Source: a virus
Taxonomy: Duplodnaviria; Heunggongvirae; Uroviricota; Caudoviricetes
IMG/VR virus record: IMGVR_UViG_2713896729_000005
DNA length: 27,673 nucleotides
Reading direction: 5' to 3' (one strand)
Part shown: positions 9,133-26,377 of the stretch, piece after piece
How the letters are laid out: the number at the start of each line of letters is the position of its first letter
Position numbering within the stretch: the first letter of the stretch is position 1
Position numbers and translations under genes: made by a program
Notes under the pieces: model-generated
What the model was told of the DNA's origin: nothing
The model's input: the letters and a program-made list of their open reading frames with translations, nothing else
The model's database searches: none

Positions 9133-9672
9133 ATGCAACCACTTACATACCAACAGACTAGCGGATTTATTCCGACTGCGGTGATAAATCGTTCTCAAAC
9201 AAAACAAGCTCCAGGCCACGAAAAAATCCGTGATGCCGTCCGCGCCTGGTCGGCTGTAGATAATCAGGATGTCGTTGCCGCACTCATTGTGAATGAGTAT
9301 CGGGAGCAGGGCGACGGCACCATCGATTTCCCTGATGATGTCAGCCGTGCACGCCAGAAGCTGTTCCGCTTCCTCGATAACAAATTCGATTCTGAAAAAT
9401 ACCGAAATAACGTGCGTGAACTGACCCCGGCAATTCTGGCGGTACTACCGCTGGAATATCGCGGTTACCTGGTTGAGCAGGATAGCTTCATGACTCGGTT
9501 GGCTGAAATGGAAAAGGAACTCAGTGAGGCAAAACAGGCTGTCATTCTCAACGCACCACGCCACCAGAAACTGAAGGAAATGAGTGAAGGTATTGTGTCG
9601 ATGTTTCGTGTGGACCCGGATCTGGCTGGTCCATTAATGGCGATGGTGACCACCATGCTGGGGGCAATATGA
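9133..9672 (+). CDS. YdaT-like protein (CII-position regulator)
   Basis: 179-aa ORF with AAGGAG RBS, immediately after cro and before the O gene; shares a HE.IR.A..AW region with the second YdaT-like protein in this window (20318..20743). Confidence 0.55.
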   Translation: MQPLTYQQTSGFIPTAVINRSQTKQAPGHEKIRDAVRAWSAVDNQDVVAALIVNEYREQGDGTIDFPDDVSRARQKLFRFLDNKFDSEKYRNNVRELTPAILAVLPLEYRGYLVEQDSFMTRLAEMEKELSEAKQAVILNAPRHQKLKEMSEGIVSMFRVDPDLAGPLMAMVTTMLGAI

Positions 9673-10688: not shown

Positions 10689-11386
10689 AAAACATCGCCG
10701 CACAGATGGTTAACTTTGACCGTGAGCAGATGCGCCGGATCGCCAACAACATGCCGGAACAGTACGACGAAAAGCCGCAGGTACAACAGGTAGCGCAGAT
10801 CATCAATGGTGTGTTCAGCCAGTTACTGGCAACTTTCCCGGCGAGCCTGGCTAACCGGGACCAGAACGAACTGAACGAAATCCGCCGCCAGTGGGTTCTG
10901 GCTTTCCGGGAAAACGGGATCACCACGATGGAACAGGTTAACGCAGGAATGCGCGTAGCCCGTCGGCAGAATCGACCATTCCTGCCATCACCCGGGCAGT
11001 TTGTTGCCTGGTGCCGGGAAGAAGCATCCGTTACCGCCGGGCTGCCAAACGCCAGCGAGCTGGTTGATATGGTTTACGAGTATTGCCGGAAACGTGGCCT
11101 GTATCCAGATGCAGAGTCTTATCCGTGGAAATCAAACGCGCACTACTGGCTGGTTACCAACCTGTATCAGAACATGCGGGCCAATGCGCTGACTGATGCG
11201 GAATTACGGCGCAAGGCTGCCGATGAACTGGCCTGTATGACAGCGCGAATTAACCGTGGTGAGGCGATACCTGAACCAGTAAAACAACTTCCTGTCATGG
11301 GCGGGAGACCGCTTAATCGTGTTCAGGCTCTGGCGAAGATCGCAGAAATCAAAGCGAAGTTTGGGCTGAAAGGAGCAAGTGTATGA
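10685..11386 (+). CDS. P: Replication protein P (DnaB helicase loader)
   Basis: 233-aa translation MKNIAAQMVNFDREQMRRIANNMPEQYDEKPQVQQVAQIINGVFSQLLATFPASLANRDQNELNEIRRQW... matches lambda P. Confidence 0.95.
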   Translation: MKNIAAQMVNFDREQMRRIANNMPEQYDEKPQVQQVAQIINGVFSQLLATFPASLANRDQNELNEIRRQWVLAFRENGITTMEQVNAGMRVARRQNRPFLPSPGQFVAWCREEASVTAGLPNASELVDMVYEYCRKRGLYPDAESYPWKSNAHYWLVTNLYQNMRANALTDAELRRKAADELACMTARINRGEAIPEPVKQLPVMGGRPLNRVQALAKIAEIKAKFGLKGASV

Positions 11387-11670
11387 CGGGCAAAGAGGCA
11401 ATTATTCATTACCTGGGGACTCATAAGAACTTCTGTGCGCAGGACGTTGCCGCGGTAACAGGCGCAACCGTAACCAGCATAAATCAGGCTGCGGCTAAAA
11501 TGGCGCGGTCAGGAATCCTGGTCGTTGATGGTAAGGTCTGGCGAACGGTGTATTACCGGTTCGCTACCAGAGAAGAACGGGAAGGAAAGGTGAGCACGAA
11601 TCTGATTTTTAAGGAGTGTCGTCAAAGTGCCGCGATGAAGCGGGTGTTGGCTTTATATGGAAGAGAGTAG
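11383..11670 (+). CDS. ren: Ren (Rex exclusion escape protein)
   Basis: 95-aa translation MTGKEAIIHYLGTHKNFCAQDVAAVTGATVTSINQAAAKMARSGILVVDGKVWRTVYYRFATREEREGK... closely matches lambda Ren. Confidence 0.9.
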   Translation: MTGKEAIIHYLGTHKNFCAQDVAAVTGATVTSINQAAAKMARSGILVVDGKVWRTVYYRFATREEREGKVSTNLIFKECRQSAAMKRVLALYGRE

Positions 11671-11734
11671 GTATGAGCAATTATTGTTACTAATTTTAGT
11701 TTTACGACATTCGTGATAACTAAATAATTGATGT

Positions 11735-11989
11735 GTGGAACTGAATTATAAAGGGGATGATGTTTTGGGAAATAAAGAAAATATCGATTGTAAGCACACA
11801 AGAAGCTCATGCTATAAAAACAAGCAGATGAAAGATGTTATTTATATTACATTGCCTAAACTCACTGAAGAAGAAGTAGAAATTTTTAAGGGACCAATGC
11901 ATAAAGCATTGCTTGCAGGGATAAATGTTACAAAAAAGGCAGTTTCTGATGCCCTGCTAAACAAAGGGATAAAAGTTGAATTTAAATAG
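11735..11989 (+). CDS. Hypothetical small protein in AT-rich island; start uncertain (GTG at 11735 or ATG at 11828 giving 53 aa)
   Basis: ORF convergent with the 472-aa gene; lysine-rich; no family recognised. Confidence 0.4.
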   Translation: MELNYKGDDVLGNKENIDCKHTRSSCYKNKQMKDVIYITLPKLTEEEVEIFKGPMHKALLAGINVTKKAVSDALLNKGIKVEFK

Positions 11990-12007
11990 AGTAATTCAGT
12001 GGCAACA

Positions 12008-12031
12008 ATAGCACTCATTTGTGAGTGCTAT
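12008..12031. terminator. Hairpin between the convergent 84-aa and 472-aa ORFs (possible bidirectional terminator)
   Basis: Perfect inverted repeat ATAGCACTCA-TTTG-TGAGTGCTAT. Confidence 0.5.
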
Positions 12032-12040
12032 TGAAATTTA

Positions 12041-13459
12041 TTAGAAAATAATGTTTGCTATATCCGAGATAGCATTTAAAGAACCTCTGTGGTCACTTCC
12101 TGTTTTAGGTAAAATATAGGAATATCGAGGGTCTTCATTATATGTTAACTTCCAGTGTTTTCCATCGCTTGACGCACTGAAACCTAAGTCCTTTAAATTT
12201 CTTTGTGTTGCGCTATCCATGCTTCTGTAACCTGTTAAAGTCCTTTTAAGTAATTGGCGGCGACTCTCGGTTTCTTTATTGTATTCATTATTGGCAATTA
12301 GGGATGATAAGATATGGTAGCTTCTACCAAATTCATTTTTATTTTTTATGGCAGTTTTTAGTGCGTCAATAATTATATTTTTGATTTCTCCATCAAAAAA
12401 ATCAGTCTCTTCACCAGCATTAAGCACAATGCTTCCTTGGGCTGAAGCTTGTGATTGAAGAGTGCGTACTCTGTGCTCTAAAGAGGAGATCTTATGCTTA
12501 AGATCTTCTATTTGGTCATCTTTCGCAACATTATCGGCTTCGTAAAGCGCCATCAGTTCGCGTGTGTATTCTCCTCTTTCTTTGAGTGAGTTAATAGAGT
12601 CTTTCGTTTTTCTGGTTTGTATCTCACTCCATCCACTATCTGAGACAGGAGCCATTGTAGTCGTAGCTCTTACAACATCATCAAATAACTCATCTTCAAA
12701 TTCTTTTGCGGTTTTCTCACCACGGCGATAAAAACTGATATTTTGACCCCGTGGCCAATAGATACCAACAGCACCAGCATAGGCATTTTTAGCATTTGTC
12801 TCATTTTTTAGCTTAATAGAAAATAGTCTATTGCTAGGCTCAATTAATACATGTGCTAATCCGCATACCTTTCTTGCAAGGCGTTCTGGGATGATATTGT
12901 GAGCATGTTCATTAAAAAAATACTTGGAGCTAACGTATATTATTGGTAGTCTGTTGTCAGTTTCACCATTTATAACTTTAGCTGCTATATTTAAATGTTC
13001 ATCAGTATCATCTAAGGAATGAGGTTCGACTGACACCTTGAAAATATCATCAAGACCACCAGAAAATTTATCAATCAATCTCATAACAACTAATGGTTTC
13101 TTAGGTTGCGGGGCTAGATAAGCTGCATCTTGGCTTACAACGCTAGATTCCACCTGAATCCACATGGTATCAGTTTTGAGATTTTTATTAATTGAAATAT
13201 CTGTTACCCATTTGTGTGGCTCAGATATTTTCGAATACCTAAAACAGCCTAAACTAGTATCTTTGTTTTTATAAGTTATTATATCAATTCTTTCATTTTT
13301 AGACTCTATGAAGTACTCCTCGCTTTTATAATCACATACTAATTGTGCTGGAATAAAAGTTGTATGTGGTGAGTCGTTTACCCAAGAAAAACATTCATTA
13401 AAGATCTCAGCTAGAGATGTGGAGTTTGAAACATAAAAACCAGTTGAGAAATATTTCAT
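12041..13459 (-). CDS. Hypothetical 472-aa protein of unrecognised family; accessory gene inserted between ren and ninB
   Basis: Long uninterrupted ORF in a visibly AT-rich segment; RBS (AAGGA) 8 nt before ATG; central coiled-coil-like segment (...DQIEDLKHKISSLEHRVRTLQSQASAQ...); no Walker A, HNH or other motif I recognise. Confidence 0.8.
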   Translation of the reverse strand: MKYFSTGFYVSNSTSLAEIFNECFSWVNDSPHTTFIPAQLVCDYKSEEYFIESKNERIDIITYKNKDTSLGCFRYSKISEPHKWVTDISINKNLKTDTMWIQVESSVVSQDAAYLAPQPKKPLVVMRLIDKFSGGLDDIFKVSVEPHSLDDTDEHLNIAAKVINGETDNRLPIIYVSSKYFFNEHAHNIIPERLARKVCGLAHVLIEPSNRLFSIKLKNETNAKNAYAGAVGIYWPRGQNISFYRRGEKTAKEFEDELFDDVVRATTTMAPVSDSGWSEIQTRKTKDSINSLKERGEYTRELMALYEADNVAKDDQIEDLKHKISSLEHRVRTLQSQASAQGSIVLNAGEETDFFDGEIKNIIIDALKTAIKNKNEFGRSYHILSSLIANNEYNKETESRRQLLKRTLTGYRSMDSATQRNLKDLGFSASSDGKHWKLTYNEDPRYSYILPKTGSDHRGSLNAISDIANIIF

Positions 13460-13477
13460 GAAATTTCCTTATTAAAA

Positions 13478-13493
13478 ATGAGATTAATCTCAT
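13478..13493. promoter_or_regulatory. Perfect 16-bp palindrome ATGAGATTAATCTCAT just upstream of the 472-aa gene RBS
   Basis: Seen in sequence, about 19 bp upstream of the start codon; candidate operator. Confidence 0.35.
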
Positions 13494-13734
13494 TGGCTAT
13501 GATAATTGTTACCCTCCTTTGGATCTAGTGTTCATTTGACATAAGAACCTATTGATTCATCATAATCAACTCGCCATAATCATGTCATCGGAGCCTGAAC
13601 AACTCCGGTGACTTCTGCGCTTTGAGGGGACTCAAAGTGCAAACGACAATCAGAACACCTTTCAACCAGTCACAGATGCAGAAATGCACCTGCGATATCT
13701 TGCATCCAACGTTTGACCTCTGCGGAGGTGAAGC

Positions 13735-14190
13735 GTGAACCTCCCACAAGATGGTATCAAATTGCATCGCGGTAACTTCACCGCTATCGGTCGGCAGATC
13801 CAGCCTTATCTGGAGGACGGCAAATGCTTTCGCATGGTGCTTAAACCGTGGCGCGAGAGACGCAGTCTTTCCCAGAATGCACTCAGCCACATGTGGTACA
13901 GCGAAATCAGTGAATACCTCATCAGCAAGGGTAAAACGTTCGCCACTCCAGCTTGGGTAAAAGATGCTCTCAAACACACATATCTCGGTTATGAAACCAA
14001 AGACCTGGTTGATGTCGTAACCGGTGATATCACCACTATCCAGTCGTTACGCCATACCTCCGATCTTGATACCGGAGAGATGTATGTCTTCCTGTGTAAG
14101 GTTGAAGCCTGGGCGGTGAATATTGGCTGCCACCTGACTATTCCGCAGAGCTGCGAGTTCCAGCTGCTCCGCGACAAGCAGGAGGCGTAA
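13735..14190 (+). CDS. ninB: NinB-family protein (Orf recombination mediator)
   Basis: 151-aa ORF (GTG start in track) with RSLSQN motif aligning to the RSLDQN motif of lambda NinB; first gene of the nin module after ren. Confidence 0.65.
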
Positions 14191-14360
14191 TGGCTACACC
14201 GCTTATTCGTGTCATGAACGGACACATCTACAGAGTACCAGATCGTCGTAAGCGTAAACCGGAGCTGAAGCCTTCCGAAATACCAACACTGCTCGGATAT
14301 ACCGCCAGCCTGGTTGATAAAAAATGGTTGCGACTGGCAGCAAGGAGGAATCATGGCTGA
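14190..14360 (+). CDS. ninE: NinE-like small protein
   Basis: 56-aa ORF (below the ORF-track cutoff) [56 protein letters not shown]; start overlaps ninB stop (TAATG), stop overlaps next start (ATGGCTGA). Confidence 0.7.
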   Translation: MATPLIRVMNGHIYRVPDRRKRKPELKPSEIPTLLGYTASLVDKKWLRLAARRNHG

Positions 14361-15269: not shown

Positions 15270-15279
15270 NNNNNNNNNN
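15270..15279. other. Run of 10 N: assembly/scaffold gap of unknown true length
   Basis: Ten ambiguous bases; gene content and strand polarity change abruptly across it. Confidence 0.97.
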
Positions 15280-16329
15280 TTAGGCCAGCACACCAATTGC
15301 CAGCGCGTGATCGATAAATCGAAAAATCAGCTCCAGTTGGGAGCCATACTTCTCTTCAAATGCCACGGTATCCGTATGCAGTTCGTCGTGATGCTTTCTG
15401 CATAAAGGCAACACAAAAAGATCATGTGCTTTGGTTCCCATTCCGCCCTGCCCGTGACCAATCAGATGATGCGGATCGTCGGCTGGCATACCGCAGCAAG
15501 CACACGGCTGTGTCTTCACCCAGCGAGTGTATTTCTCCTTAACCCAGCGGCGACGTTTAGGTAGCTTCATGAAAGATTCCGGAGACTCAGGATCAACGGT
15601 GATGCTTACCACCGTCCTTTCCTGTAGTGGGTGTTGTTCCTGGTGGGCGTGAGGCAACAGTGCAAGATTTTTTGTGCGCTGTTTCAATATGCTGGTGGCG
15701 GTCTGCTCTCCCGGTACGATGTCGCTTTCGCGGTACATTGAGCGGATTTTTTCCGCTGGTAATCCCAGCGAGCGACGTAATACCGCTTCAGGTAGCGCAT
15801 CCGCCACCTGATTTCGGACCGCCCACCAGGATAATTCAGCCAGAGATAATTCACGCTCCTGCGTACCGCTTATTGCGTGACCGATGACGTCAATCATCCA
15901 TGCTGACAGGTTTTGATGAGCAAGTTGCTCGAGTGATTCGGATGTCTGGTCACGCAGCTGGTTGTCGCAGTGCCAGCACAACACCATTGCGCCGGTACCA
16001 TAACGGTGAATGACGGTTTCACTGTGGTGATAATCGCCGTGTGGCCACTGGCAGGATTTAATATGGCGCAACAGCCAGTCAGACAATGCACCAGCACCAC
16101 CAGCAGCACGAATCACCCGTGCGTTACTGAAAAACGGCAGCAATGTTTTGTCTTCCACCAGCGGCTGGCGAACGGCAGGAACGACCCCGGACGGCAGATT
16201 ACGCATGCTTTTCGGTTCCGGCTCCACCAGTACCCGGGTATTGTGGAATACCGGCATGGATTCACGGCCCGGCTTAACGATCACCACCCCGAGTTCCGGT
16301 ACCAGAACAGGTCGAAGTAATACCCGCAC
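15280..16329 (-). CDS. YdfU-like prophage protein with cysteine/histidine-rich C-terminal region
   Basis: 349-aa ORF; C-terminal CACCGMPADDPHHLIGHGQGGMGTKAHDLFVLPLCRKHHDELH; stop codon abuts the gap. Confidence 0.65.
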   Translation of the reverse strand: MRVLLRPVLVPELGVVIVKPGRESMPVFHNTRVLVEPEPKSMRNLPSGVVPAVRQPLVEDKTLLPFFSNARVIRAAGGAGALSDWLLRHIKSCQWPHGDYHHSETVIHRYGTGAMVLCWHCDNQLRDQTSESLEQLAHQNLSAWMIDVIGHAISGTQERELSLAELSWWAVRNQVADALPEAVLRRSLGLPAEKIRSMYRESDIVPGEQTATSILKQRTKNLALLPHAHQEQHPLQERTVVSITVDPESPESFMKLPKRRRWVKEKYTRWVKTQPCACCGMPADDPHHLIGHGQGGMGTKAHDLFVLPLCRKHHDELHTDTVAFEEKYGSQLELIFRFIDHALAIGVLA

Positions 16330-16330
16330 G

Positions 16331-16609
16331 TTACCTCCAGATCCGTTGCTGGTATGTGCGGGATGAACGCGGTGGGCGTTCGGAGTAAGGGAGTCTGACT
16401 GAGATTATCCAGTGACGGTAGTCGAGGCTAAGAGCTTTCTTAACCTCGTATCCGCGCCTGCGGTAACACTGAATTATCCATTCCGCCTGCTCTTCAGTGC
16501 ATGGAGGATGCTGGAACCAGTCTGATTTGAATGCGTGAAAACGCCGTCCGCACCTACTGGCAAAGACGGCAGAATCATTAGAATTGTGTAATTTGGTATC
16601 GTGCGCCAT
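16331..16609 (-). CDS. Rem-like small protein; start chosen at internal ATG
   Basis: 92-aa product MAHDTKLHNSNDSAVFASRCGRRFHAFKSDWFQHPPCTEEQAEW...; position between ydfU-like and hok as in Qin; the ORF track shows a 135-aa extension. Confidence 0.5.
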   Translation of the reverse strand: MAHDTKLHNSNDSAVFASRCGRRFHAFKSDWFQHPPCTEEQAEWIIQCYRRRGYEVKKALSLDYRHWIISVRLPYSERPPRSSRTYQQRIWR

Positions 16610-16776
16610 CGGTTGTCTCTGCTGGCGCAGCAGGTGCCAGTTGTTCAGGCTGGCGTGCGAATTGTAAACCAGAATGCCAGGAAAAAACAAAACCCGCCGA
16701 AGCGGGTTACGTGCGGGTGCGTTGAGGATGCCTGACACATCAGAGGTGGCGAGGGATTTCTCCCCCGCCAGGTCTC

Positions 16777-16932
16777 TTACTCCTCAGGTTCGTAAGCTGT
16801 GAAGACAGCGACCTCCGTCTGGCCGGTTCGGATTCGTACCTCGCAGAGGTCTTTCCTCGTTACCAGTGCCGTCACTATGACGGTTAAACAGATGACGATC
16901 AGGGCGATTAACATCGCCTTTTGCTGCTTCAT
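16777..16932 (-). CDS. hok: Hok/Gef-family type I toxin (membrane-depolarising peptide)
   Basis: 51-aa ORF found by manual translation: MKQQKAMLIALIVICLTVIVTALVTRKDLCEVRIRTGQTEVAVFTAYEPEE; below the ORF-track size cutoff. Confidence 0.85.
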   Translation of the reverse strand: MKQQKAMLIALIVICLTVIVTALVTRKDLCEVRIRTGQTEVAVFTAYEPEE

Positions 16933-17190
16933 AGCCTGCTTCTCCTTGACCTTTCGGTCCGTAAGAGGCTAATCTCTATGTGTCGCATAGATATGGCCTC
17001 AGATTAATGTTAAGCGTCTTGCAGGACGCGTAATGTTAACTGGGGCTTTTCTCTATCTGCCTTTTGGTGTTCATGCCTGAGACAGATAGCCTCAAGCACC
17101 CGCAGTCATTCTACTTAACTAAGATTTCCCCGCAAACCGTTTTTGTCCGGCACAGTAAATATCCAACTAAACCAATGGCGTTCGCTGTAT

Positions 17191-17370
17191 TTACCGCCAG
17201 TATTCAATGCACATGACCGCCATGAACACCCCTAAAAAAAGGGCATTTATATATCCAAATATTAATATCAAAACATCAACTTTTTCCATATACCTTGCTG
17301 TGAAGATGATGGGCATACATGATACGAACAACCAGAACGCAACAAACAAAAACTGCAATGCGTTTTTCAT
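17191..17370 (-). CDS. Hypothetical small hydrophobic protein (59 aa, about 2 TM helices)
   Basis: ATG preceded by strong RBS (AGGAGG); MKNALQFLFVAFWLFVSCMPIIFTARYMEKVDVLILIFGYINALFLGVFMAVMCIEYWR; AT-rich. Confidence 0.45.
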   Translation of the reverse strand: MKNALQFLFVAFWLFVSCMPIIFTARYMEKVDVLILIFGYINALFLGVFMAVMCIEYWR

Positions 17371-17599
17371 TATTCCTCCTACAATCAATGTGCAATTACA
17401 TTTAAACACACCTCAATTTGGCCGGACATATAAATATCTAAACCAGAAAAAATCACTTACATAGCGTTACAAACTCTTTAGTCTAAATATTCATCGTAAA
17501 ACATTCCCCATACTTATCAGCCCGTTCTGCGCCAGGTAGCTCATTGCCTTATCTGGGAATCTGTAATCAGGTTTCCGGATGCTGGTGGATTTTCGCGTT

Positions 17600-17857
17600 T
17601 TAGTTGTTCATAAAAGTGCACAGCTTTAACCAGTTCTTCTGATGTAACCGGGACTGGCGGGGCAGTGAATAAGGCCTGAATTTCATAGTTCGGCCTGTCG
17701 TTACAATCCTCTTTTTTCGGTACATATTTCCAGTCACCAGACCACTACTTCCCCTGAAAGTCCGTAACGCCTTTTTTTTCACGTAGCGATATCGCCATGC
17801 CACTGTTTTTGCTTGCCCCGCCGTTTCATGCCCTTCCTGATAATTAACCTCGCTCAT
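17600..17857 (-). CDS. Possible small basic protein (85 aa); weak call
   Basis: Start ATG overlaps the stop of the upstream acidic ORF (ATGA), suggesting coupling, but composition is unusual and the region could be non-coding. Confidence 0.3.
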   Translation of the reverse strand: MSEVNYQEGHETAGQAKTVAWRYRYVKKKALRTFRGSSGLVTGNMYRKKRIVTTGRTMKFRPYSLPRQSRLHQKNWLKLCTFMNN

Positions 17858-18030
17858 TCATCGCCCCACTCATCACAATATGCTTCGACCGGAGTTTTTC
17901 CTGCTTCATAATCATCACGCCATGCTTCAGCATCAGCAGCACTGCCACCACGTAACTCTGCATAGTCCATTAACAGTTCATGCCATTCTTCAAAACTGAC
18001 GTTGTATTTAGTTGAACCAAAATCAGCCAT
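17854..18030 (-). CDS. Hypothetical small acidic protein (58 aa)
   Basis: Manual translation MADFGSTKYNVSFEEWHELLMDYAELRGGSAADAEAWRDDYEAGKTPVEAYCDEWGDE; start overlaps stop of upstream ORF (ATGGCTGA). Confidence 0.5.
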   Translation of the reverse strand: MADFGSTKYNVSFEEWHELLMDYAELRGGSAADAEAWRDDYEAGKTPVEAYCDEWGDE

Positions 18031-18205
18031 TTTGTTCTTCCTCTTCGTCTTTTATTTCGTGATATGAGTAATTGCAGTAGTTAAAGAAAATATCTTTTGC
18101 TTCGTCATGTATTTCATCAGGCGTCGCATCATCATCCACTTCGAATTCATCCTCGAAATCTCCACCGGCTATTCCCGTTTCAATAATTATTTTAAACTTT
18201 CGCAT
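18023..18205 (-). CDS. Hypothetical small, highly acidic protein (60 aa)
   Basis: MRKFKIIIETGIAGGDFEDEFEVDDDATPDEIHDEAKDIFFNYCNYSYHEIKDEEEEQNG; about one third D/E. Confidence 0.5.
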   Translation of the reverse strand: MRKFKIIIETGIAGGDFEDEFEVDDDATPDEIHDEAKDIFFNYCNYSYHEIKDEEEEQNG

Positions 18206-18298
18206 TTAACTACCGCCCTTTCGGGCGGCCTCCTGATGTTCTGAGGGTGCAGAAATCCCTCCGGTTAAGGATTAAATTTTTAACAGAGCTAAATTTAA

Positions 18299-18655
18299 TT
18301 ATTCAGTTCTGGATTTTGTCGCCCTGCGTATCCGCGCTTTCGCGTTACGCTCAATCTGAATTAGCTTTTCTATATTTTTTCGCCTTTCCCGCTCCTCCTG
18401 ACGCAAGAGCCTTACATCATCTGCCAGTCTGGTTTCTCTTTTCGCCACAGAGAGCATCCAGTCAAATGGCTCCACAACTGCACCGCAGATTTTACAGCGG
18501 ACCTGACGCTCTTTTTCGTCAACCCGGACAGAGGCGTGATGACAATATGGTCTTTCCGATGGCTCATAAAGAAAATTAACCTGATTACGAGGGTCATCCT
18601 CTTTTACCGGAAATAAAACGATATTGCTTAACTCATCCTCTGGTTTTATTTCCAT
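18299..18655 (-). CDS. Hypothetical protein with possible zinc-binding motif (HH...CKICG)
   Basis: 118-aa product from internal ATG with strong RBS (AAGGAGAGGAG); the ORF track shows a 19-codon upstream extension. Confidence 0.5.
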   Translation of the reverse strand: MEIKPEDELSNIVLFPVKEDDPRNQVNFLYEPSERPYCHHASVRVDEKERQVRCKICGAVVEPFDWMLSVAKRETRLADDVRLLRQEERERRKNIEKLIQIERNAKARIRRATKSRTE

Positions 18656-18712
18656 GCTCCTCTCCTTTGATGCGAATGCCAGCGGTAATTGAAGCCTGAT
18701 AGCTAATTTCAC

Positions 18713-19135
18713 TCACAGTACCGCCTCCTGAAAATTACCCTGATAGAAAGCCAGTACACGCTGCATAGCTTCACTCTTCCGGCACTCGCGACAGATTATG
18801 TTTAGGCGACTGTCGTAGCGACGTATTTCTCCGTCAGGTGATGACCAGATAAGGTCCGGATCAACCACAGCAGGTTTCTTCACCTTTGCCCTCGAGAGTT
18901 TTTTGCGGGCGTTTTGCCAGTCCTTACGCGCCTGTTCAGAGGGGAATAACCCGTAGCCGGAGTTGTATACATCGCCGCTGGCAACCAGCTCTCTTGCGAG
19001 AACGCTCATCAGATATCTTGTCGCACCTGTCTTGACTTCCAGTTGCCGTAACGTCTCACGCCCACTCTGGCGTACGAGTTCAACAACCTGCCCTTTAATT
19101 TTTTCTCGCTCTTCTTGTGTAAAAACTTTTGCCAC
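18713..19135 (-). CDS. Hypothetical protein with Ren-like C-terminus
   Basis: 140-aa ORF; C-terminal ...ICRECRKSEAMQRVLAFY resembles the ...FKECRQSAAMKRVLALY end of Ren from the first prophage; follows the replication gene. Confidence 0.5.
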   Translation of the reverse strand: MAKVFTQEEREKIKGQVVELVRQSGRETLRQLEVKTGATRYLMSVLARELVASGDVYNSGYGLFPSEQARKDWQNARKKLSRAKVKKPAVVDPDLIWSSPDGEIRRYDSRLNIICRECRKSEAMQRVLAFYQGNFQEAVL

Positions 19136-19175
19136 AAGCCCTCCTGAAAATTACCTCATGACCAGAAATCAACAC

Positions 19176-20252
19176 TTACCCCCTGAAGCCCGGTGGAATT
19201 TCGGTATCCGGTTCAGAAATATGATTCACACAACGCTGGTTGTTCGTGCCGCTTACCGGGAGCAACCAGGGGTTCTCAAAATTCCGGTCCGGTCCAAAAA
19301 ACGTCGTCGCTCGCTGAACAAATTCCGTTCCCGTTTTCCCGGTAGCCGCCAAGTATCTTGCGTAACGCCTCACGCCATCCAGCATGGCCTCTGGTGGCAC
19401 CCCCTCGCGTAATCTGGCCTTCCAGGCACTGAAAGCGGATTTCTTCGGGTTTGCTCCGGCACGCAACGGGTACTCCCGCCAGACCTGTTCGAACACATCC
19501 GGATAATCCACTCGTCCCACAGACAGCCCGGTGTTTTCCGGGACTACCCGATCGGCTTCCCGCTGAATGGCGGAATCGGCTTCAGGCTGCTGCAGTTGGT
19601 GTGATTGCTCCGGCCTTGGGGTCATCACCTGCTGCACAGCGCCCGAATCGGCTTTCAGCGCATACGCTGAATCGGCTTCCGGTGTCGTGCCTGCTGGCTG
19701 ACCAGGATTGACGGTCTGAACATCCCCTGCCTGGTTCGTGGCGTTTTTTACGCCATGGACCATAGTGTTTTGATCTTCTTGATCTGTATCTTTATCTGTA
19801 TCTTTATCTGTCGTGACTCGTCGTGACATGTGCGTGACATTTCGTGACGCGCCGTGACAATCGCCATTTTGTTCCCGCTTTCTTTCCCTCTCTCGCTGCG
19901 CCCTCTTGCGCTCTGCCGGAGATTTTGCGGTTTGCGAAATATTGCCGTTGTCCTCTTTCAGCACCTGGCGTTTTTCCCATCCAGTGATTAAATCACCATC
20001 AAGTACCCGCCCCTGCATCGTCTGCAAAATTGAATCAATTACCTCTTCTGTCACGTCGAGCGCACTTGCCAAATCTTCTGTCGTGACATCAATGTGACCT
20101 CGCGTGACATTTCGTGACGCGCTCACCAGGAGGTGGATATACACTGCCATCACTGTTGCAATTGGCTGCCCTGACACCCTGGCAATTGTTCGCCACTTAG
20201 GGTCATTTGGCATGTCATGCCATAATCTGAGCCAGGCGTTAGCCATACTCAC
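19176..20252 (-). CDS. Putative phage replication initiator / replisome organiser with internal iteron-like repeats
   Basis: 358-aa ORF in the O-gene position (after cro and YdaT); contains two clusters of short direct repeats that translate to the repeated peptide ASRNVT and DKDTDKDTD. Confidence 0.55.
   Translation of the reverse strand: MSMANAWLRLWHDMPNDPKWRTIARVSGQPIATVMAVYIHLLVSASRNVTRGHIDVTTEDLASALDVTEEVIDSILQTMQGRVLDGDLITGWEKRQVLKEDNGNISQTAKSPAERKRAQRERERKREQNGDCHGASRNVTHMSRRVTTDKDTDKDTDQEDQNTMVHGVKNATNQAGDVQTVNPGQPAGTTPEADSAYALKADSGAVQQVMTPRPEQSHQLQQPEADSAIQREADRVVPENTGLSVGRVDYPDVFEQVWREYPLRAGANPKKSAFSAWKARLREGVPPEAMLDGVRRYARYLAATGKTGTEFVQRATTFFGPDRNFENPWLLPVSGTNNQRCVNHISEPDTEIPPGFRG
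19771..19860. repeat. Iteron-like direct repeats (TATCTTTATCTG x2-3; CGTGAC x5) inside the replication gene
   Basis: Seen in sequence; includes the 21-mer GCGTGACATTTCGTGACGCGC at 19832-19852. Confidence 0.6.
20080..20122. repeat. Second iteron cluster; 21-mer GCGTGACATTTCGTGACGCGC repeated exactly at 20102-20122
   Basis: Perfect 21-bp direct repeat of 19832-19852, 270 bp apart. Confidence 0.6.
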
Positions 20253-20317
20253 CTCTTCTGATACCGAATCTTTTTACTCACGAGTTGCCGGAAGCGATTC
20301 GATATGGCTATTGTCAG

Positions 20318-20743
20318 TCAATGTACTGCCACAGCATTTCCTGCCGGGCCACCACGGTTCATCTGATTGAAACCGGCGATTGCCACTGCGACAAAATCAT
20401 CAGCGTCTCTCACCAGTCGCTCCCGCGTCTCCACCAGCTCCCGAAAATAAGCTGAACTGTGGCTGCGCATTCTGGCCACCAGCAAAGGTGGCATTGCCTT
20501 TTCGATCGCTGGTAACAACGCCTGAATTTTTTCAACTGCATCAGGGGTGTCTTTCTCTACCCAGCGGAAAATTTTCTGGGTATTGCGAGCCAGGGCTTCC
20601 GGATGGCTGTCGTCATACAGTTCCGGGAACGTCATTCCCAGCTCGAAATACGCTTTGGTAATTTTCGCAGCCGGTACTTTTTCGCCGTCCGGATGCGCCC
20701 AGGCATTCATCGCCATGCGGATGTGTTCATGCTTGATTTTCAT
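20318..20743 (-). CDS. YdaT-family protein (CII-position regulator)
   Basis: 141-aa ORF beginning MKIKHEHI and ending AVH, matching the remembered start and end pattern of Rac YdaT. Confidence 0.7.
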   Translation of the reverse strand: MKIKHEHIRMAMNAWAHPDGEKVPAAKITKAYFELGMTFPELYDDSHPEALARNTQKIFRWVEKDTPDAVEKIQALLPAIEKAMPPLLVARMRSHSSAYFRELVETRERLVRDADDFVAVAIAGFNQMNRGGPAGNAVAVH

Positions 20744-20970
20744 GAATCCCCCCCTTGGTTAGAAGGCGGATTATGATCAGAACCGGGAATGACAACCGTC
20801 GGTATGTGTAACTCATATTTGAGCGCCCCGGCAGTGACTGCCTGAATTAGCAACGCCCATTTCCACGGAACCTCTTCCCCCCACATGCTGACTGTGGTTT
20901 TTGACGTTCCTAGAGCTGCGGCTGTTTTAACAACTCCGCCAAAATAGCCTAATACTTCTGATTTTTTCAT
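20740..20970 (-). CDS. Cro-like regulator (DicC/YdaS-like), 76 aa
   Basis: MKKSEVLGYFGGVVKTAAALGTSKTTVSMWGEEVPWKWALLIQAVTAGALKYE...; divergent from the repressor gene; internal start chosen, the ORF track extends 16 codons upstream. Confidence 0.65.
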   Translation of the reverse strand: MKKSEVLGYFGGVVKTAAALGTSKTTVSMWGEEVPWKWALLIQAVTAGALKYELHIPTVVIPGSDHNPPSNQGGDS

Positions 20971-21061
20971 GAGTCGCTCCATAAAACTGAACGTCAAAAG
21001 TTTAATAATCAAAACCAAAGAAAGTCAAGAAACAAAACCATCTGTGTTTTAAAATCAAAAC
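20971..21061. promoter_or_regulatory. Divergent operator/promoter region between cro-like and repressor genes of the second prophage
   Basis: 91-bp AT-rich intergenic region with the palindromic element AAAACCATCTGTGTTTT. Confidence 0.4.
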
Positions 21062-21700
21062 ATGAGCAAGCAAACTATATCTGAACGCATAACCCAACGT
21101 ATGCATGCGCTAAACCTGAAAGGCAAAGACCTTGTCAATGGCACTGGCGCATCAAAAGGCTCCGTAAGTCAATGGATGAACGGTGGAGGAGCGCCGTCCT
21201 CGCGTTACATAAGTTCACTGGCAAAAATATTGAAAGTAAACGAAAATTGGCTTCTTAATGGAGGAGAGTTAAATACAGGTGATTCGCTTGATCTATCTTT
21301 ACCGCCGATAAAAACGGTTCCGCTACTATCACTTCAGCAGGCAGCAAGCTGGAGTGATTATATGAAAAATTCCTCAATAACCTCTTGTGTGCAGCTTGTC
21401 GGAGAAATCCCGGTCAATACCTTTGCAGTTGTTCTAGAGAGTGACAGTATGTCAACATCTGGTGGGGGAGTTTCCATCCCAAATGGTTCAACAGTTTTTG
21501 TTGATCCCGATCGAACCGTACAACCAGGAAATATTGTCCTTGCCTTACCCAAAGGGACCACAACACCTGTCATTCGTAAACTGGAGATAGAAGGGCCGGA
21601 TATTCTTTTAGTCCCCACGAATCCTCGCTACCCTTCAATTATGCTGGATGATCTATCTTGCATATTGGGCGTATGCTTTAAAATTCAACAAGATATTTAA
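21062..21700 (+). CDS. CI-type repressor (HTH plus S24 peptidase), heteroimmune to the first prophage repressor
   Basis: 212-aa ORF; S24 motifs ESDSM and downstream Lys (IRKL); N-terminal HTH; sequence unlike the repressor at 8039..8728. Confidence 0.8.
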   Translation: MSKQTISERITQRMHALNLKGKDLVNGTGASKGSVSQWMNGGGAPSSRYISSLAKILKVNENWLLNGGELNTGDSLDLSLPPIKTVPLLSLQQAASWSDYMKNSSITSCVQLVGEIPVNTFAVVLESDSMSTSGGGVSIPNGSTVFVDPDRTVQPGNIVLALPKGTTTPVIRKLEIEGPDILLVPTNPRYPSIMLDDLSCILGVCFKIQQDI

Positions 21701-21992
21701 CCAACCTCATCTATTTGATTAACTGTATGCCATCGTGGTGATGGCTTAACAGCTGCCTGCTTAAAATGTTTTGATAAAAAAACATTGACCTGGAAAGTTC
21801 GTCTTTCTAAACTTCATTCATTCCCTCACCCCATCCTACAGAATGCAGGGCAATACTTCGAGTTACCAGGCAGTGGTCAGGGGTTAAGTAGCCAGCCCGA
21901 GGCGTAAGAACATGACGGCAGGGTTCAACTTTAATAACTATGCAGCAGGTTTTTGTTCCGCTACCCCGGCGTTAAGGGGAAATGAGGTCAGC

Positions 21993-22148
21993 ATGGATAC
22001 TATCGATCTTGGCAACAACGAATCTCTGGTGTACGGCGTGTTTCCAAACCAGGACGGCACCTTCACCGCAATGACGTATACCAAAAGCAAAACGTTTAAA
22101 ACCGAAAATGGTGCCCGTCGCTGGCTGGAAAGAAACTCAGGTGAGTGA
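21993..22148 (+). CDS. ydfA: YdfA-like small protein (51 aa)
   Basis: MDTIDLGNNESLVYGVFPNQDGTFTAMTYTKSKTFKTENGARRWLERNSGE with GAGG RBS; matches remembered Qin ydfA. Confidence 0.65.
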   Translation: MDTIDLGNNESLVYGVFPNQDGTFTAMTYTKSKTFKTENGARRWLERNSGE

Positions 22149-22149
22149 T

Positions 22150-22278
22150 ATGGATTTTGACACAATCATGGAAAAGGCTTACGAAGAATACTTCGAAGGC
22201 CTTGCCGAAGGCGAAGAAGCTCACAGCTTCAACGAATTTAAACAGGCGCTTTCCAGTTCGGCAAAATCTAACGGCTGA
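22150..22278 (+). CDS. ydfB: YdfB-like small protein (42 aa)
   Basis: Manual translation MDFDTIMEKAYEEYFEGLAEGEEAHSFNEFKQALSSSAKSNG; start overlaps ydfA stop. Confidence 0.6.
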   Translation: MDFDTIMEKAYEEYFEGLAEGEEAHSFNEFKQALSSSAKSNG

Positions 22279-22307
22279 TAAGCGAAACAGCACCGCGAGG
22301 AATCAGT

Positions 22308-22526
22308 ATGCAGAAACGAGAACCCGTCATCATCGCGCCAGACTATACCGATGATGAACTTTATGAGTGGATGCGCCAGAAAATTAATGCAGCGCAGGAT
22401 CTGAAATGGGCCAATGAAGCCAGGGCTAAGCAGGCTGAAAATCTGTCCGCTCTGGAGCAGGATATCACCAATCTGGAAAAAGCAGCGGCATTAAGCATTG
22501 CCAGAATGATTACATACCCGCGTTAA
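22308..22526 (+). CDS. ydfC: YdfC-like protein (72 aa)
   Basis: MQKREPVIIAPDYTDDELYEWMRQKINAAQDLKWANEARAKQAENLSALEQDITNLEKAAALSIARMITYPR. Confidence 0.7.
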   Translation: MQKREPVIIAPDYTDDELYEWMRQKINAAQDLKWANEARAKQAENLSALEQDITNLEKAAALSIARMITYPR

Positions 22527-22866
22527 TAGCTAACCAACGAAGCTAAGGTTGGTAATTAAGGAGTTCTCCACGGGTGAGGTGGAGTGCGTGCGCCGGACAC
22601 GGGTGAGCATCCGGCACTGACAGTTTACTGAAAGGATATTTCCCTGAAAAGTCAGACCATAACGCGAAAGCGCACGGCGAGGTAGCTGGTTCATAGATAG
22701 CCTGTCGTTAAATTTTCGTCGACCGTGCGCTTCCGGTTGTGGCAACCCGCGAAATGGTGCGGCGGTAAGTATGGCGGGGTTATTTCTTCCCCGTTGAGGA
22801 CACCGGGTTGTCAGGTTGACCATACGCTTAAGTGACAACCCCGCTGCAACGCCCTCTGTTATCAAT

Positions 22867-22919
22867 TTTCTGGTGACGTTTGGCGGTATCAGTTTTACTC
22901 CGTGACTGCTCTGCCGCCC
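22867..22919 (+). ncRNA. dicF: DicF small RNA (trans-acting sRNA that represses ftsZ)
   Basis: Sequence TTTCTGGTGACGTTTGGCGGTATCAGTTTTACTCCGTGACTGCTCTGCCGCCC matches my memory of the 53-nt DicF RNA; correct position between ydfC and dicB; followed by a T-run. Confidence 0.7.
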
Positions 22920-23093
22920 TTTTTAAAGTGAATTTTGTGATGTGGTGAATGCGGCTGAGCGCACGCGGAACAGTTAAAACCAAAAACAGTGTTATGGGTG
23001 GATTCTCTGTATCCGGCGTTAATTGTTAACTGGTTAACGTCACCTGGAGGCACCAGGCACTGCATCACAAAATTCATTGTTGAGGACGCGATA

Positions 23094-23282
23094 ATGAAAA
23101 CGTTATTACCAAACGTTAATACGTCTGAAGGTTGTTTTGAAATTGGTGTCACTATCAGTAACCCAGTATTTACTGAAGATGCCATTAACAAGAGAAAACA
23201 AGAACGGGAGCTATTAAATAAAATATGCATTGTTTCAATGCTGGCTCGTTTACGTCTGATGCCAAAAGGATGTGCACAATGA
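23094..23282 (+). CDS. dicB: DicB cell-division inhibitor (acts through MinC)
   Basis: 62-aa ORF MKTLLPNVNTSEGCFEIGVTISNPVFTEDAINKRKQERELLNKICIVSMLARLRLMPKGCAQ; the ORF track extends upstream, the internal ATG fits the known size. Confidence 0.85.
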   Translation: MKTLLPNVNTSEGCFEIGVTISNPVFTEDAINKRKQERELLNKICIVSMLARLRLMPKGCAQ

Positions 23283-23470
23283 ATTCAGCATTTGTGCTTG
23301 TTCTGACAGTTTTTCTTGTTTCCGGAGAGCCAGTTGATATTGCAGTCAGTGTTCACAGGACAATGCAGGAGTGTATGACTGCAGCAACCGAACAGAAAAT
23401 TCCCGGTAACTGTTACCCGGTCGATAAAGTTATTCACCAGGATAATATCGAAATCCCGGCAGGTCTTTAA
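23279..23470 (+). CDS. ydfD: YdfD-like small membrane protein
   Basis: 63-aa ORF MNSAFVLVLTVFLVSGEPVDIAVSVHRTMQECMTAATEQKIPGNCYPVDKVIHQDNIEIPAGL; start overlaps dicB stop. Confidence 0.8.
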   Translation: MNSAFVLVLTVFLVSGEPVDIAVSVHRTMQECMTAATEQKIPGNCYPVDKVIHQDNIEIPAGL

Positions 23471-23562
23471 AACAGTTCCGTAATAAATATCCGGTTTCAT
23501 TCTTATATGCCAGCAATGGCAGGGATTTGTTCATCCTTAAATCTGTCATGAGGTTAAAACAA

Positions 23563-26034
23563 ATGAGTAAAGTCTTTATTTGCGCCGCTATTCCTGACGA
23601 ACTGGCAACAAGGGAAGAAGGCGCTGTGGCTGTAGCCACAGCCATTGAAGCTGGCGACGAACGCCGTGCTCGAGCAAAATTTCACTGGCAATTCCTGGAA
23701 CATTATCCGGCTGCTCAGGACTGCGCTTATAAATTTATTGTCTGCGAGGATAAACCTGGCATACCCCGCCCTGCCCTCGATTCATGGGATGCTGAATATA
23801 TGCAGGAAAACCGCTGGGATGAGGAGTCTGCTTCTTTTGTCCCGGTTGAGACTGAATCCGATCCGATGAACGTCACTTTTGACAAGCTGGCCCCTGAAGT
23901 ACAGAACGCTGTCATGGTTAAGTTCGACACATGTGAAAACATCACCGTTGATATGGTTATTAGCGCACAGGAATTGTTGCAGGAAGACATGGCAACATTC
24001 GACGGACATATCGTTGAAGCGTTGATGAAAATGCCAGAAGTTAACGCCATGTATCCGGAGCTTAAGTTGCACGCCATTGGGTGGGTTAAGCATAAATGTA
24101 TTCCTGGTGCTAAATGGCCCGAAATTCAGGCAGAGATGCGCATCTGGAAAAAACGTCGCGAAGGTGAACGCAAGGAAACCGGAAAATACACGTCTGTTGT
24201 TGATCTCGCCCGCGCCAGAGCCAATCAACAGTACACTGAAAATTCAACAGGAAAAATCAGCCCGGTCATTGCTGCCATTCATCGCGAATACAAGCAGACA
24301 TGGAAAACACTGGATGACGAACTGGCCTACGCTCTCTGGCCTGGTGATGTGGATGCCGGAAACATTGACGGCAGCATCCATCGCTGGGCAAAAAATGAAG
24401 TTATCGACAACGACCGCGAAGACTGGAAGCGTATCTCGGCATCAATGCGCAAACAGCCTGATGCCCTTCGCTACGACCGCCAAACTATTTTTGGCCTTGT
24501 CCGTGAGCGTCCGATCGACATTCACAAAGATCCCGTAGCACTGAACAAATATATCTGCGAATACCTGACGACAAAGGGCGTGTTTGAGAATGAAGAAACA
24601 GACCTGGGCACTGTTGATGTTCTCCAGTCATCAGAAACACAAACTGATGCAGTGGAAACTGAGGTATCTGATATCCCAAAAAATGAAACCGCGCCGGAAG
24701 CTGAACCATCTGTAGAGCGTGAGGGGCCGTTCTATTTCCTCTTCGCAGATAAGGACGGAGAAAAATACGGTCGCGCAAACAAACTTTCTGGTCTGGATAA
24801 GGCACTGGCTGCTGGCGCCACTGAAATCACAAAAGAAGAATATTTTGCCCGAAAAAATGGCACATACACGGGCTTACCGCAAAATGTAGATACCGCTGAA
24901 GATTCAGAACAACCAGAGCCGATAAAAGTTACCGCTGACGAAGTAAACAAAATTATGCAGGCAGCCAATATCATCCAGCCTGACGCCGATAAGTTGCTTG
25001 CTGCATCACGTGGTGAATTTGTTGAAGGGATTAGTGACCCGAATGATCCGAAATGGGTTAAGGGGATCCAGACCCGCGATTCTGTGAACCAGAACCAGCA
25101 TGAATCGGAACGGAACTACCAAAAAGCGGAACAAAACAGCCCAAATGCGTTACAAAACGAGCCAGAAACGAAACAGCCTGAATCAGTGGCGCAACAGGAA
25201 GTGGAAAAAGTCTGCACCGCCTGCGGTCAGACCGGCGGCGGCAACTGCCCTGATTGTGGCGCGGTAATGGGCGACGCAACATACCAGGAAACATTCGATG
25301 AAGAGTATCAGATTGAAGTTCAGGAAGATGATCCGGAGGAAATGGAAGGCGCTGAACATCCACACAAGGAGAACACTGGCGGCAATCAGCATCACGATAG
25401 CGATAATGAAACTGGCGAGACGGCAGATCACTCAATTAAGGTGAACGGTCATCAAGAAATCACATCCACCAGCAGGACGTGTGACCATCTAATGATCGAC
25501 CTTGAAACCATGGGAAAAAATCCTGATGCCCCGATCATCTCAATAGGTGCAATATTTTTCGATCCGCAAACCGGAGATATGGGACCGGAATTTAGTAAGA
25601 CTATCGATCTGGAAACTGCTGGCGGAGTCATTGATCGGGACACCATTAAATGGTGGCTTAAGCAATCACGCGAAGCGCAATCTGCCATTATGACCGATGA
25701 AATCCCGTTAGATGATGCACTGTTACAATTGTGGGAATTTATCGACGAAAACTCCGGTGAATTTTTTGTTCAGGTCTGGGGAAATGGAGCCAACTTCGAC
25801 AACACGATTTTGCGCCGTTCATACGAACGGCAGGGGATCCCCTGCCCGTGGCGTTACTACAACGATCGCGATGTACGCACAATCGTTGAGCTGGGGAAAG
25901 CCATAGACTTCGATGCCAGAACGGCTATTCCATTCGAAGGTGAGCGCCATAATGCACTTGATGACGCCCGTTACCAGGCAAAATACGTTTCAGTTATCTG
26001 GCAAAAACTGATCCCGAGTCAGGCTGATTCTTAA
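23563..26034 (+). CDS. Large YdfE/RecE-like protein (823 aa) with internal C4 zinc ribbon and C-terminal DEDDh 3'-5' exonuclease domain
   Basis: Start at ATG 23563 (MSKVFICAAIP..., GAGG RBS); zinc ribbon CTACGQTGGGNCPDCG; exonuclease motifs IDLET, VWGNGANFD and HNALDD near the C-terminus. Confidence 0.8.
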   Translation: MSKVFICAAIPDELATREEGAVAVATAIEAGDERRARAKFHWQFLEHYPAAQDCAYKFIVCEDKPGIPRPALDSWDAEYMQENRWDEESASFVPVETESDPMNVTFDKLAPEVQNAVMVKFDTCENITVDMVISAQELLQEDMATFDGHIVEALMKMPEVNAMYPELKLHAIGWVKHKCIPGAKWPEIQAEMRIWKKRREGERKETGKYTSVVDLARARANQQYTENSTGKISPVIAAIHREYKQTWKTLDDELAYALWPGDVDAGNIDGSIHRWAKNEVIDNDREDWKRISASMRKQPDALRYDRQTIFGLVRERPIDIHKDPVALNKYICEYLTTKGVFENEETDLGTVDVLQSSETQTDAVETEVSDIPKNETAPEAEPSVEREGPFYFLFADKDGEKYGRANKLSGLDKALAAGATEITKEEYFARKNGTYTGLPQNVDTAEDSEQPEPIKVTADEVNKIMQAANIIQPDADKLLAASRGEFVEGISDPNDPKWVKGIQTRDSVNQNQHESERNYQKAEQNSPNALQNEPETKQPESVAQQEVEKVCTACGQTGGGNCPDCGAVMGDATYQETFDEEYQIEVQEDDPEEMEGAEHPHKENTGGNQHHDSDNETGETADHSIKVNGHQEITSTSRTCDHLMIDLETMGKNPDAPIISIGAIFFDPQTGDMGPEFSKTIDLETAGGVIDRDTIKWWLKQSREAQSAIMTDEIPLDDALLQLWEFIDENSGEFFVQVWGNGANFDNTILRRSYERQGIPCPWRYYNDRDVRTIVELGKAIDFDARTAIPFEGERHNALDDARYQAKYVSVIWQKLIPSQADS

Positions 26035-26106
26035 TGTTCAACTGTCGCCGGTTGTGACTGGTATTCTGCAACCGGCGCTCGTCTGATGTAAGAGATAAAG
26101 AAATCG

Positions 26107-26358: not shown

Positions 26359-26377
26359 CTAAAAGCCACACTAACTA

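Follow-up and report, generated by a model that had tools for sequence, protein, structure and literature searches.

A lone cargo gene of a DLP12-type prophage encodes a distant HEC-07 homologue with a HicA-like C-terminal domain: a candidate anti-phage defence cassette

The IMG/VR virus record IMGVR_UViG_2713896729_000005 (Duplodnaviria; Heunggongvirae; Uroviricota; Caudoviricetes) contains part of a DLP12-type lambdoid prophage in which an AT-rich island, carrying a gene for a 472-residue protein, separates ren from the ninB-like gene ybcN. All positions given below refer to the window, by which we mean the whole 27,673-nucleotide stretch that was analysed. What does this island encode, and what might it do for the prophage or its host? 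The original prediction, made from the sequence alone, took the island for foreign cargo of lysogenic-conversion or defence type, could place its large protein in no family and named it the best candidate for an undescribed system. We found that the island is foreign cargo and that a role in defence is its best reading, but that the protein is not without a family and that the system is not an undescribed one.

Homology to HEC-07

Both open reading frames (ORFs) of the island are present exactly as had been described, namely the gene for the 472-residue protein (12041..13459, minus strand) and an 84-residue ORF which is convergent on it (11735..11989, plus strand). The larger protein had been said to contain no recognisable motif, and a Pfam search with it indeed returned no family above threshold; matches to coiled-coil proteins (tropomyosin, SynZip etc.) in whole-protein profile searches of Pfam, NCBIfam and the PDB were rejected as compositional. 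Among the defence-system models of PADLOC 2.0, in which HEC-07 is represented by PDLC04158-04161, the HEC-07 model matched the protein at E = 1e-9 with 35.8 bits, over residues 83-334 of the protein and positions 107-366 of the 553 in the model. HEC-07 is a single gene embedded in Hma systems. Its product is described as starting with an AdoMetDC-like domain, followed by one that is thioredoxin-like but lacks CxxC and by a RelE-like C-terminus in which His543 is conserved, and seven of nine candidates, HEC-07 included, lowered phage plaquing in Escherichia coli (Payne et al., bioRxiv 10.1101/2024.01.29.577857). A homologue of HEC-07, which has already been shown to protect E. coli from phages, can be called neither a member of an unrecognised family nor an undescribed system, and the first of these labels is further contradicted by the profile alignment reported below and by the HicA-like character of the C-terminus.

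The 472-residue protein does not match the HEC-07 models over their full length or with a high score. We also compared it with HEC-07 itself. The first 133 residues of the tested Pseudomonas aeruginosa HEC-07, taken from the supplement of the paper, returned fragments only when used as a database query, and were used to recover full-length orthologues from genome contigs (L022, 556 residues, and L023, 555 residues). Both orthologues match PDLC04161 over its whole length with 665-677 bits, and for members of the family of about 470 residues to which our protein belongs the match is limited to the central part, at 15-41 bits. When a profile of 127 family members was aligned to the HEC-07 orthologues with hhalign, the probability was 96.2% (E = 2.4e-9); with a smaller family profile it was 71% (E = 3.7e-5, residues 82-362). 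The alignment is confident from about residue 82 to about residue 335, weakens toward the N-terminus and includes the motifs G[LV]AHV and, in the helical segment of residues 271-337, LYE.DN. From these comparisons we are confident that the 472-residue protein is a distant homologue of HEC-07, the relationship extending from the last part of the N-domain through the thioredoxin-like domain and the coiled coil.

An AlphaFold2 model of the protein, with a confidence score (pLDDT) of 84, has folded N-terminal domains to about residue 270, a 38-residue helix at 300-337 and a C-terminal region, which agrees with the earlier sketch of an N-terminal region, a central coiled-coil-like segment and a C-terminal region. 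Residues 1-135 (13055..13459; this and all other parts of the gene are on the minus strand) correspond to a predicted helix-grip domain of START / Bet v 1 / SRPBCC-like type, a candidate sensor. Residues 136-270 (12650..13054) adopt a thioredoxin fold without CxxC which is common to HEC-07 and is the most highly conserved part of the protein, containing the strongest family motifs (LPIxYVS, GxAHVxxEP and NxYGGAVGIYWP). A full-length Foldseek search against the PDB gave nothing at E ≤ 1e-3 and was informative for the thioredoxin domain only. Residues 271-337 (12449..12649) comprise helices followed by the long coiled-coil helix (300-337), a probable oligomerisation element according to the secondary structure of the model, and residues 338-410 (12230..12448) comprise a low-confidence linker (338-357, with pLDDT < 50 at 338-343) and a three-helix bundle (358-371, 379-389 and 396-408). 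E351, E358 and R379 are invariant across 41 homologues. The C-terminal portion, residues 411-472 (12044..12229), is a HicA-like domain and a putative RNase effector, compactly folded in the model as alpha-beta-beta-beta-alpha at 416-470. HEC-07 and this protein thus have in common that each is a single gene whose second domain is thioredoxin-like without CxxC and is followed by a helical or coiled-coil segment, and they would also have a logic in common, with an N-terminal core that regulates and a toxin-type RNase domain at the C-terminus.

The protein is one of many. A word-indexed search found 75 clusters of homologues in Enterobacterales, Pseudomonas, Caulobacter and metagenomes, all of them "hypothetical" and without Pfam domains, and nearly all 466-482 residues long. 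An exhaustive hidden Markov model (HMM) search with the N-terminal 275 residues as query, in which each representative stands for a 50%-identity cluster, found 1922 representatives at E ≤ 1e-3, including 538 at E ≤ 1e-30. Among the best 150 of the 1922, which were inspected, nearly all have 462-496 residues, and the C-terminal domain is kept in 128 of 128 full-length representatives. Judged by these searches, the 472-residue protein belongs to a large family, of at least 538 such clusters, with a fixed architecture of about 470 residues. The gene is also under purifying selection, as estimated from a comparison with a 77% identical orthologue in which the nonsynonymous divergence (dN) is 0.16 and the synonymous divergence (dS) is saturated.

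The C-terminal domain

We examined the C-terminal domain separately with a Pfam search and a profile alignment. HicA_toxin (PF07927) was the sole Pfam family matched by several C-terminal sequences: at E < 10 it was found with 7 of 25 (best E = 0.005) and with 3 of 8 of them, the best score of 15.9 bits being below the cut-off of 27 bits, and the C-terminal sequence from the window itself had no match to this family at E < 10. A profile of 129 C-terminal domains aligned to E. coli HicA, the sequence of which was checked to be identical to 6hpb_A, with a probability of 87% (E = 3.7e-6) and a score of 30.1, as against 9.2 ± 2.3 (maximum 19.2) for 100 shuffled HicA sequences. These two independent sequence tests concur on the HicA-likeness of the domain, which also has the dsRBD-like (double-stranded RNA-binding domain) alpha-beta-beta-beta-alpha fold of HicA toxins. 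HicA was not among the matches when the C-terminal alignment was used for a sequence-profile search of the PDB; the best match was an uncharacterised protein (2m7o, E = 0.017).

The sole residue which is invariant in all 129 C-terminal sequences is His435 (codon 12155..12157, minus strand), a putative catalytic histidine whose counterpart in the alignment is His23 of E. coli HicA, at the start of beta2; the surrounding G433-x-H435 resembles Gly22/His24 of Burkholderia pseudomallei HicA. This histidine is conserved among HicA toxins (His23 in E. coli, His24 in B. pseudomallei and His28 in Yersinia pestis), where RNase activity or toxicity depends on it, and these toxins cut RNA without need of the ribosome (PMC11594946). 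The HicA toxins (PF07927; PDB 6hpb, 6g26, 5yrz, 4p78 and 1whz) thus have their dsRBD-like fold in common with our domain, which differs from them in being fused to an N-terminal region of about 410 residues, in scoring below the Pfam threshold and in having a conserved set of its own (K437, D443, R445, Y446, K452, S455-D456, R458 and N462). In contrast to the type II HicAB toxin-antitoxin systems there is no HicB partner, and the N-terminal domains are START-like and thioredoxin-like rather than of the RNase H-like HicB fold. On the basis of these comparisons we describe the C-terminal domain as HicA-like, with a plausible active site, and do not assign it to Pfam HicA_toxin.

The HicA fold is itself a dsRBD fold and catalysis by this domain is putative, which allows the polarity of the protein to be read the other way round: the C-terminal domain would be a non-catalytic sensor of RNA (phage dsRNA or structured RNA) and the thioredoxin fold, in which conservation peaks at GxAHVxxEP and NxYGGAVGIYWP, would be the effector or enzyme. 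We regard this as unlikely, given that the thioredoxin-like domain has no recognised catalytic motif, that the only fully invariant C-terminal residue is the one aligned to the catalytic histidine of HicA, and that the common core is paired with two toxin-RNase folds (RelE-like in HEC-07 and HicA-like here), which is the usual pattern of an interchangeable effector.

The effector of HEC-07 is RelE-like according to the paper, an assignment which we did not reproduce from sequence, and that of the 472-residue protein is HicA-like instead. Compared directly, the C-terminal profile scored 13.9 against the HEC-07 C-terminus and 11.2 ± 2.1 against shuffled sequences, which is at noise level. A motif H-x-K-x5-D-x-R-Y (residues 435-446, 12122-12157) does have a spacing equal to that of 'HLKGSNSRDRRY' at about residues 515-526 of the HEC-07 orthologue in L022. 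Homology of the two C-termini by way of this motif was rejected on the basis of the non-significant profile comparison, and the likeness may be a coincidence or a very deep link. Since the cores are homologous and the C-termini are not detectably related, we regard HEC-07 and the family of about 470 residues as two families which have their core in common and differ in their effector.

The combination of an HEC-07-type core with a HicA-type end was not found in the PADLOC 2.0 models or in the literature that could be searched, by protein accession as well as on HicA-fusion defence proteins and nin-region hotspots, and neither the 14 classes of HicA contexts described by Gerdes nor his survey of multidomain RelE/ParE toxins contains it. 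The novelty of the protein therefore lies in this pairing; the HEC-07 core and its tested relative were already known. Similar in organisation are the fused HicA proteins of Classes 11-14, for which an anti-phage role like that of CapRel(SJ46) has been proposed (Gerdes 2024, mBio, PMC10865869). They resemble our gene in being monocistronic with a C-terminal HicA-type domain. However, none of the four classes has a START-like and thioredoxin-like core: Classes 11-12 have HicA fused to the RNase H-like HicB, Class 14 is an SMC fusion, and Class 13 proteins have 340-440 residues and a mainly alpha-helical N-terminus, as opposed to 462-496 residues and beta-rich N-terminal domains here, so that the 472-residue family does not belong to that class. 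The proposed logic of CapRel(SJ46), in which one polypeptide contains a toxin that is autoinhibited in cis and released by a phage product (PMC10865869), is alike; CapRel(SJ46), a tRNA pyrophosphokinase whose toxin is N-terminal, has no sequence or fold relationship to our protein, and the analogy is one of mechanism only.

Among the PHROGs, two families whose function is not assigned match the C-terminal domain: phrog_2053 (72 residues) matches residues 411-467 at E = 9e-8 and phrog_2089 (107 residues) matches the HicA-like domain at E = 0.009. Stand-alone versions of the domain therefore exist in phage genomes, and these could be toxins or decoys.

A lone cargo gene on unrelated mobile elements

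The island (11659..13563) lies between ren and the ylcH-like and ybcN genes, and its composition is as AT-rich as had been noted: the GC content is 0.32-0.37 over about 11600-13600 and 0.50-0.56 on both sides. The 472-residue gene itself has a GC content of 0.356 and a third-position GC content (GC3) of 0.27, compared to 0.51-0.55 and 0.55-0.60 respectively for P, ren, ybcN and rusA. On the left, homology with junctions which hold other cargo ends at 11628-11658, and on the right homology with other prophages restarts at 13542-13564; with breaks at about 11659, a few bases inside the 3' end of ren, and at about 13542-13563, the island is about 1.9 kb long. No direct or inverted repeats pointing to transposition or site-specific insertion were found at its edges, and the most likely route of exchange is therefore recombination within the conserved phage genes on either side. 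An Rfam scan of the island gave no match.

The surrounding backbone is that of a DLP12-type lambdoid prophage adjoining tRNA-Arg, with the gene order S24 repressor, cro-like gene, YdaT-domain protein, O-like gene, P, ren, island, 33-codon ORF, ybcN, ninE, ybcO and rusA, and E. coli EFF60 has a 2.9-kb stretch which is identical to the corresponding part of the window. The left flank, ren (11383..11670, plus strand), is conserved prophage backbone and is labelled "Ren protein" in records which are 98-100% identical; the right flank (13735..14190, plus strand) is annotated as YbcN and scores 21.6 bits on Pfam NinB, for which the cut-off is 23.8. The gene in the position of cII (9133-9672, plus strand) encodes a YdaT_toxin-domain protein (Pfam E = 4e-30), and related genomes label its product "toxin YdaT domain-containing protein".

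To determine how common the island is, we compared window positions 11300-14200 with 5426 complete E. coli genomes by megablast. The flanks were present in 3728 of these genomes and the island in 24, and other cargo occupied the junction elsewhere, which bears out the description of a self-contained opposite-strand insertion and marks the junction as a variable one. The DLP12 prophage of K-12 has emrE-ylcJ-ybcK-ybcL-ybcM at the same junction, plus an IS3 within ren. Many E. coli have a two-gene cassette of about 1.5 kb, encoding a 186-residue product, labelled either "hypothetical" or "UDP-N-acetylglucosamine acyltransferase", and a 150-residue "membrane protein", and other strains have a 164-residue gene labelled "type VI secretion system-associated protein TagO" followed by about 950 bp without an annotated gene. 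These alternative cassettes are candidate morons. In E. coli G4/9 and UID2309220033 the island stretch is interrupted or extended, an IS3 transposase lying inside the 2.9-kb stretch of one and an extra gene for a "P22AR C-terminal domain-containing protein" being present in the other. The MB20 allele of the 472-residue gene differs from that of the window by one synonymous and no nonsynonymous change.

The homologues were found in settings of many kinds. Homologues with 77% identity adjoin integrases in islands at two different chromosomal sites of Salmonella and E. coli; a 62% homologue is cargo of an integrative and conjugative element of Dickeya, near IS110 and an Mrr-type gene; a Stutzerimonas homologue lies in a small integrase element and a Pseudomonas homologue amid Fic, HipA and BrnA toxin-antitoxin genes. 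A 45% homologue stands alone and on the opposite strand between the tail genes S and V of a P2-like prophage of Serratia ureilytica (L026 10001-11443). In the same prophage a gene for an RVT_1 reverse transcriptase (L026 20076-21443) adjoins the portal gene, so that two accessory sites both hold defence-type cargo. The most divergent homologue (25% identity; metagenome contigs L015-L017) belongs to a same-strand gene block of a variable island, together with genes for a small radical-SAM protein, two unknowns, a transglutaminase-core protein and two Schlafen/AlbA-HATPase_c_4 proteins, with AAA-trypsin and HSP70-like genes in one contig, and this block has the look of a variable defence island. 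Compared with its host the gene is AT-rich in every case, Caulobacter included (GC content 0.44 vs 0.69), and no neighbouring gene is conserved across the ten contexts examined. The gene travels alone, mostly on mobile elements. As a further observation on gene neighbourhoods, the HEC-07 orthologue of the Curvibacter metagenome-assembled genome (MAG) has directly downstream of it (L022 5671-6876) a gene for a 401-residue protein with DUF3427 and HNH domains, which may be another defence-type gene of the same island.

These contexts bear on two alternatives to a role in defence. The first is that the gene is a fused toxin-antitoxin or addiction module, in which the N-terminal part keeps a HicA-like toxin neutralised in cis, and that its main role is to stabilise the elements which carry it rather than to act against phages. 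A toxin-type domain with no separate antitoxin, encoded always on or beside mobile elements, would fit such a module, and monocistronic fused HicA-HicB genes have been described (Gerdes, PMC10865869); we nevertheless consider it rather unlikely. The second is that the gene is a moron with no part in defence, serving lysogenic conversion, host physiology or the prophage's own life cycle, as might be suspected from the non-defence cargo of K-12 at the same junction (emrE, ybcL) and from the two homologues which lie in unremarkable chromosomal neighbourhoods. This is decidedly unlikely in view of the HEC-07 homology and toxin-type C-terminus, the presence of the gene at accessory sites of unrelated element types and the lack of any signal peptide, membrane feature or virulence-family match in Pfam and NCBIfam.

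The original prediction had also named the small ORF among the contents of the island. It has a GTG start, and its homologues form four clusters only, all at least 86% identical, 53-88 residues long and located in the same island; it had no match in Pfam, PADLOC, NCBIfam or PHROGs, and no counterpart was found beside the nine other homologue contexts examined. The 84-residue ORF is therefore probably an orphan or a remnant and not a functional partner. The RefSeq label of the MB20 allele (L001 3436-3690) is "phospholipase D-like domain-containing protein", and that of the 99% identical EFF60 allele is "hypothetical protein". The idea that the ORF is a truncated phospholipase D (PLD) nuclease or a partner of this type was dropped because none of the four libraries supported PLD and the homologues are all short and island-specific. 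The adjacency of the two ORFs and their common AT-richness, together with this label, might still suggest a two-gene system with the small protein as an antitoxin or partner; with a small ORF that is convergent and not co-transcribed, restricted to this island and missing from the other contexts, such a system is most improbable.

Two sites in the island were recognised by pattern match only. A sigma-70 promoter-like site (ATGACA-18-TATGAT, 13559..13588, minus strand; 10 of 12 consensus positions) lies upstream of the 472-residue gene, and a perfect 12-bp terminator-like hairpin (12006..12033, plus strand) lies between the two convergent ORFs, where it could terminate transcripts of the 472-residue gene, halt rightward phage transcription in the manner of tR2, or do both.

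Beyond the lambdoid genes there is a run of 10 N at 15270-15279, and positions 15280-27673 are a different, oppositely oriented prophage piece, so that the window is apparently a scaffold in which two prophage fragments were joined; it lacks the late genes of the DLP12-like phage. The right-hand piece encodes a DUF968/HNHc_6 protein (15280-16329, minus strand), an S24/HTH repressor (21062-21700), an 835-residue protein which contains an Rv2179c-like 3'-5' exonuclease domain (23527-26034) and, at 26378-27673, a second integrase.

A proposed role in abortive infection

We propose, with a probability of roughly 60%, that the island, a moron of the DLP12-type prophage, is an anti-phage defence cassette of a single gene, whose product acts as an autoinhibited sensor-RNase that aborts phage infection. 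The proposal draws on the homology to HEC-07, the thioredoxin-like domain without CxxC which matches the description of the second HEC-07 domain, the C-terminus that differs from that of HEC-07, the occurrence as a lone gene at accessory sites of mobile elements and the uniform, conserved architecture. The helix-grip domain, the thioredoxin fold without a redox motif and the coiled coil would form a sensing or autoinhibitory and oligomerising core, which would keep the C-terminal HicA-like RNase inactive in cis in an uninfected lysogen. A cue from an infecting phage, either a protein or a small molecule, might then bind to the N-terminal modules and free the HicA-like domain, which would cut RNA independently of the ribosome and so shut down translation. 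An infected cell would as a result yield no phage, by abortive infection or growth arrest.

It should be noted that several points weigh against this proposal. The RNase activity, the autoinhibition, the trigger and the defence phenotype are all inferred, partly by analogy with HEC-07 and CapRel(SJ46). The match to HEC-07 is partial (35.8 bits, compared to about 670 for true orthologues), and function may therefore have diverged. The N-domain of HEC-07 is AdoMetDC-like in the paper and that of the 472-residue protein was found here to be START-like. The Caulobacter context and one MAG context contain no obvious mobile or defence genes, and a tblastn search of 50,697 phage genomes gave no match for the 472-residue protein.

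A wider reading, which we hold only tentatively and consider doubtful, is that the family of about 470 residues is a widespread, unrecognised single-protein immune sensor, in which the START-like domain and the redox-dead thioredoxin fold would detect a small-molecule or lipid-like signal of infection, and not a phage protein, and unleash a divergent HicA-type RNase. Together with HEC-07 the family would then make up a superfamily whose members have one sensor scaffold in common and exchangeable toxin-RNase heads (RelE, HicA and perhaps further types in the approximately 1400 lower-scoring relatives).

That effectors are swapped on a common scaffold is to be expected in bacterial immunity, and nothing about the protein is mechanistically unprecedented yet. 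If the proposed role is confirmed, a large family would join the catalogue of single-gene defences, one which the tools run here do not call (PADLOC gives a partial low match, and Pfam and NCBIfam give nothing). The HEC-07 scaffold would be modular, taking either a RelE-type or a HicA-type RNase, and the two families would be a natural pair for studying how the core senses infection. It would also make the HicA-type domain a cis-regulated immune effector which works without a HicB partner, and the ren-ninB junction of DLP12-type prophages is a cargo site worth mining for more defence genes.

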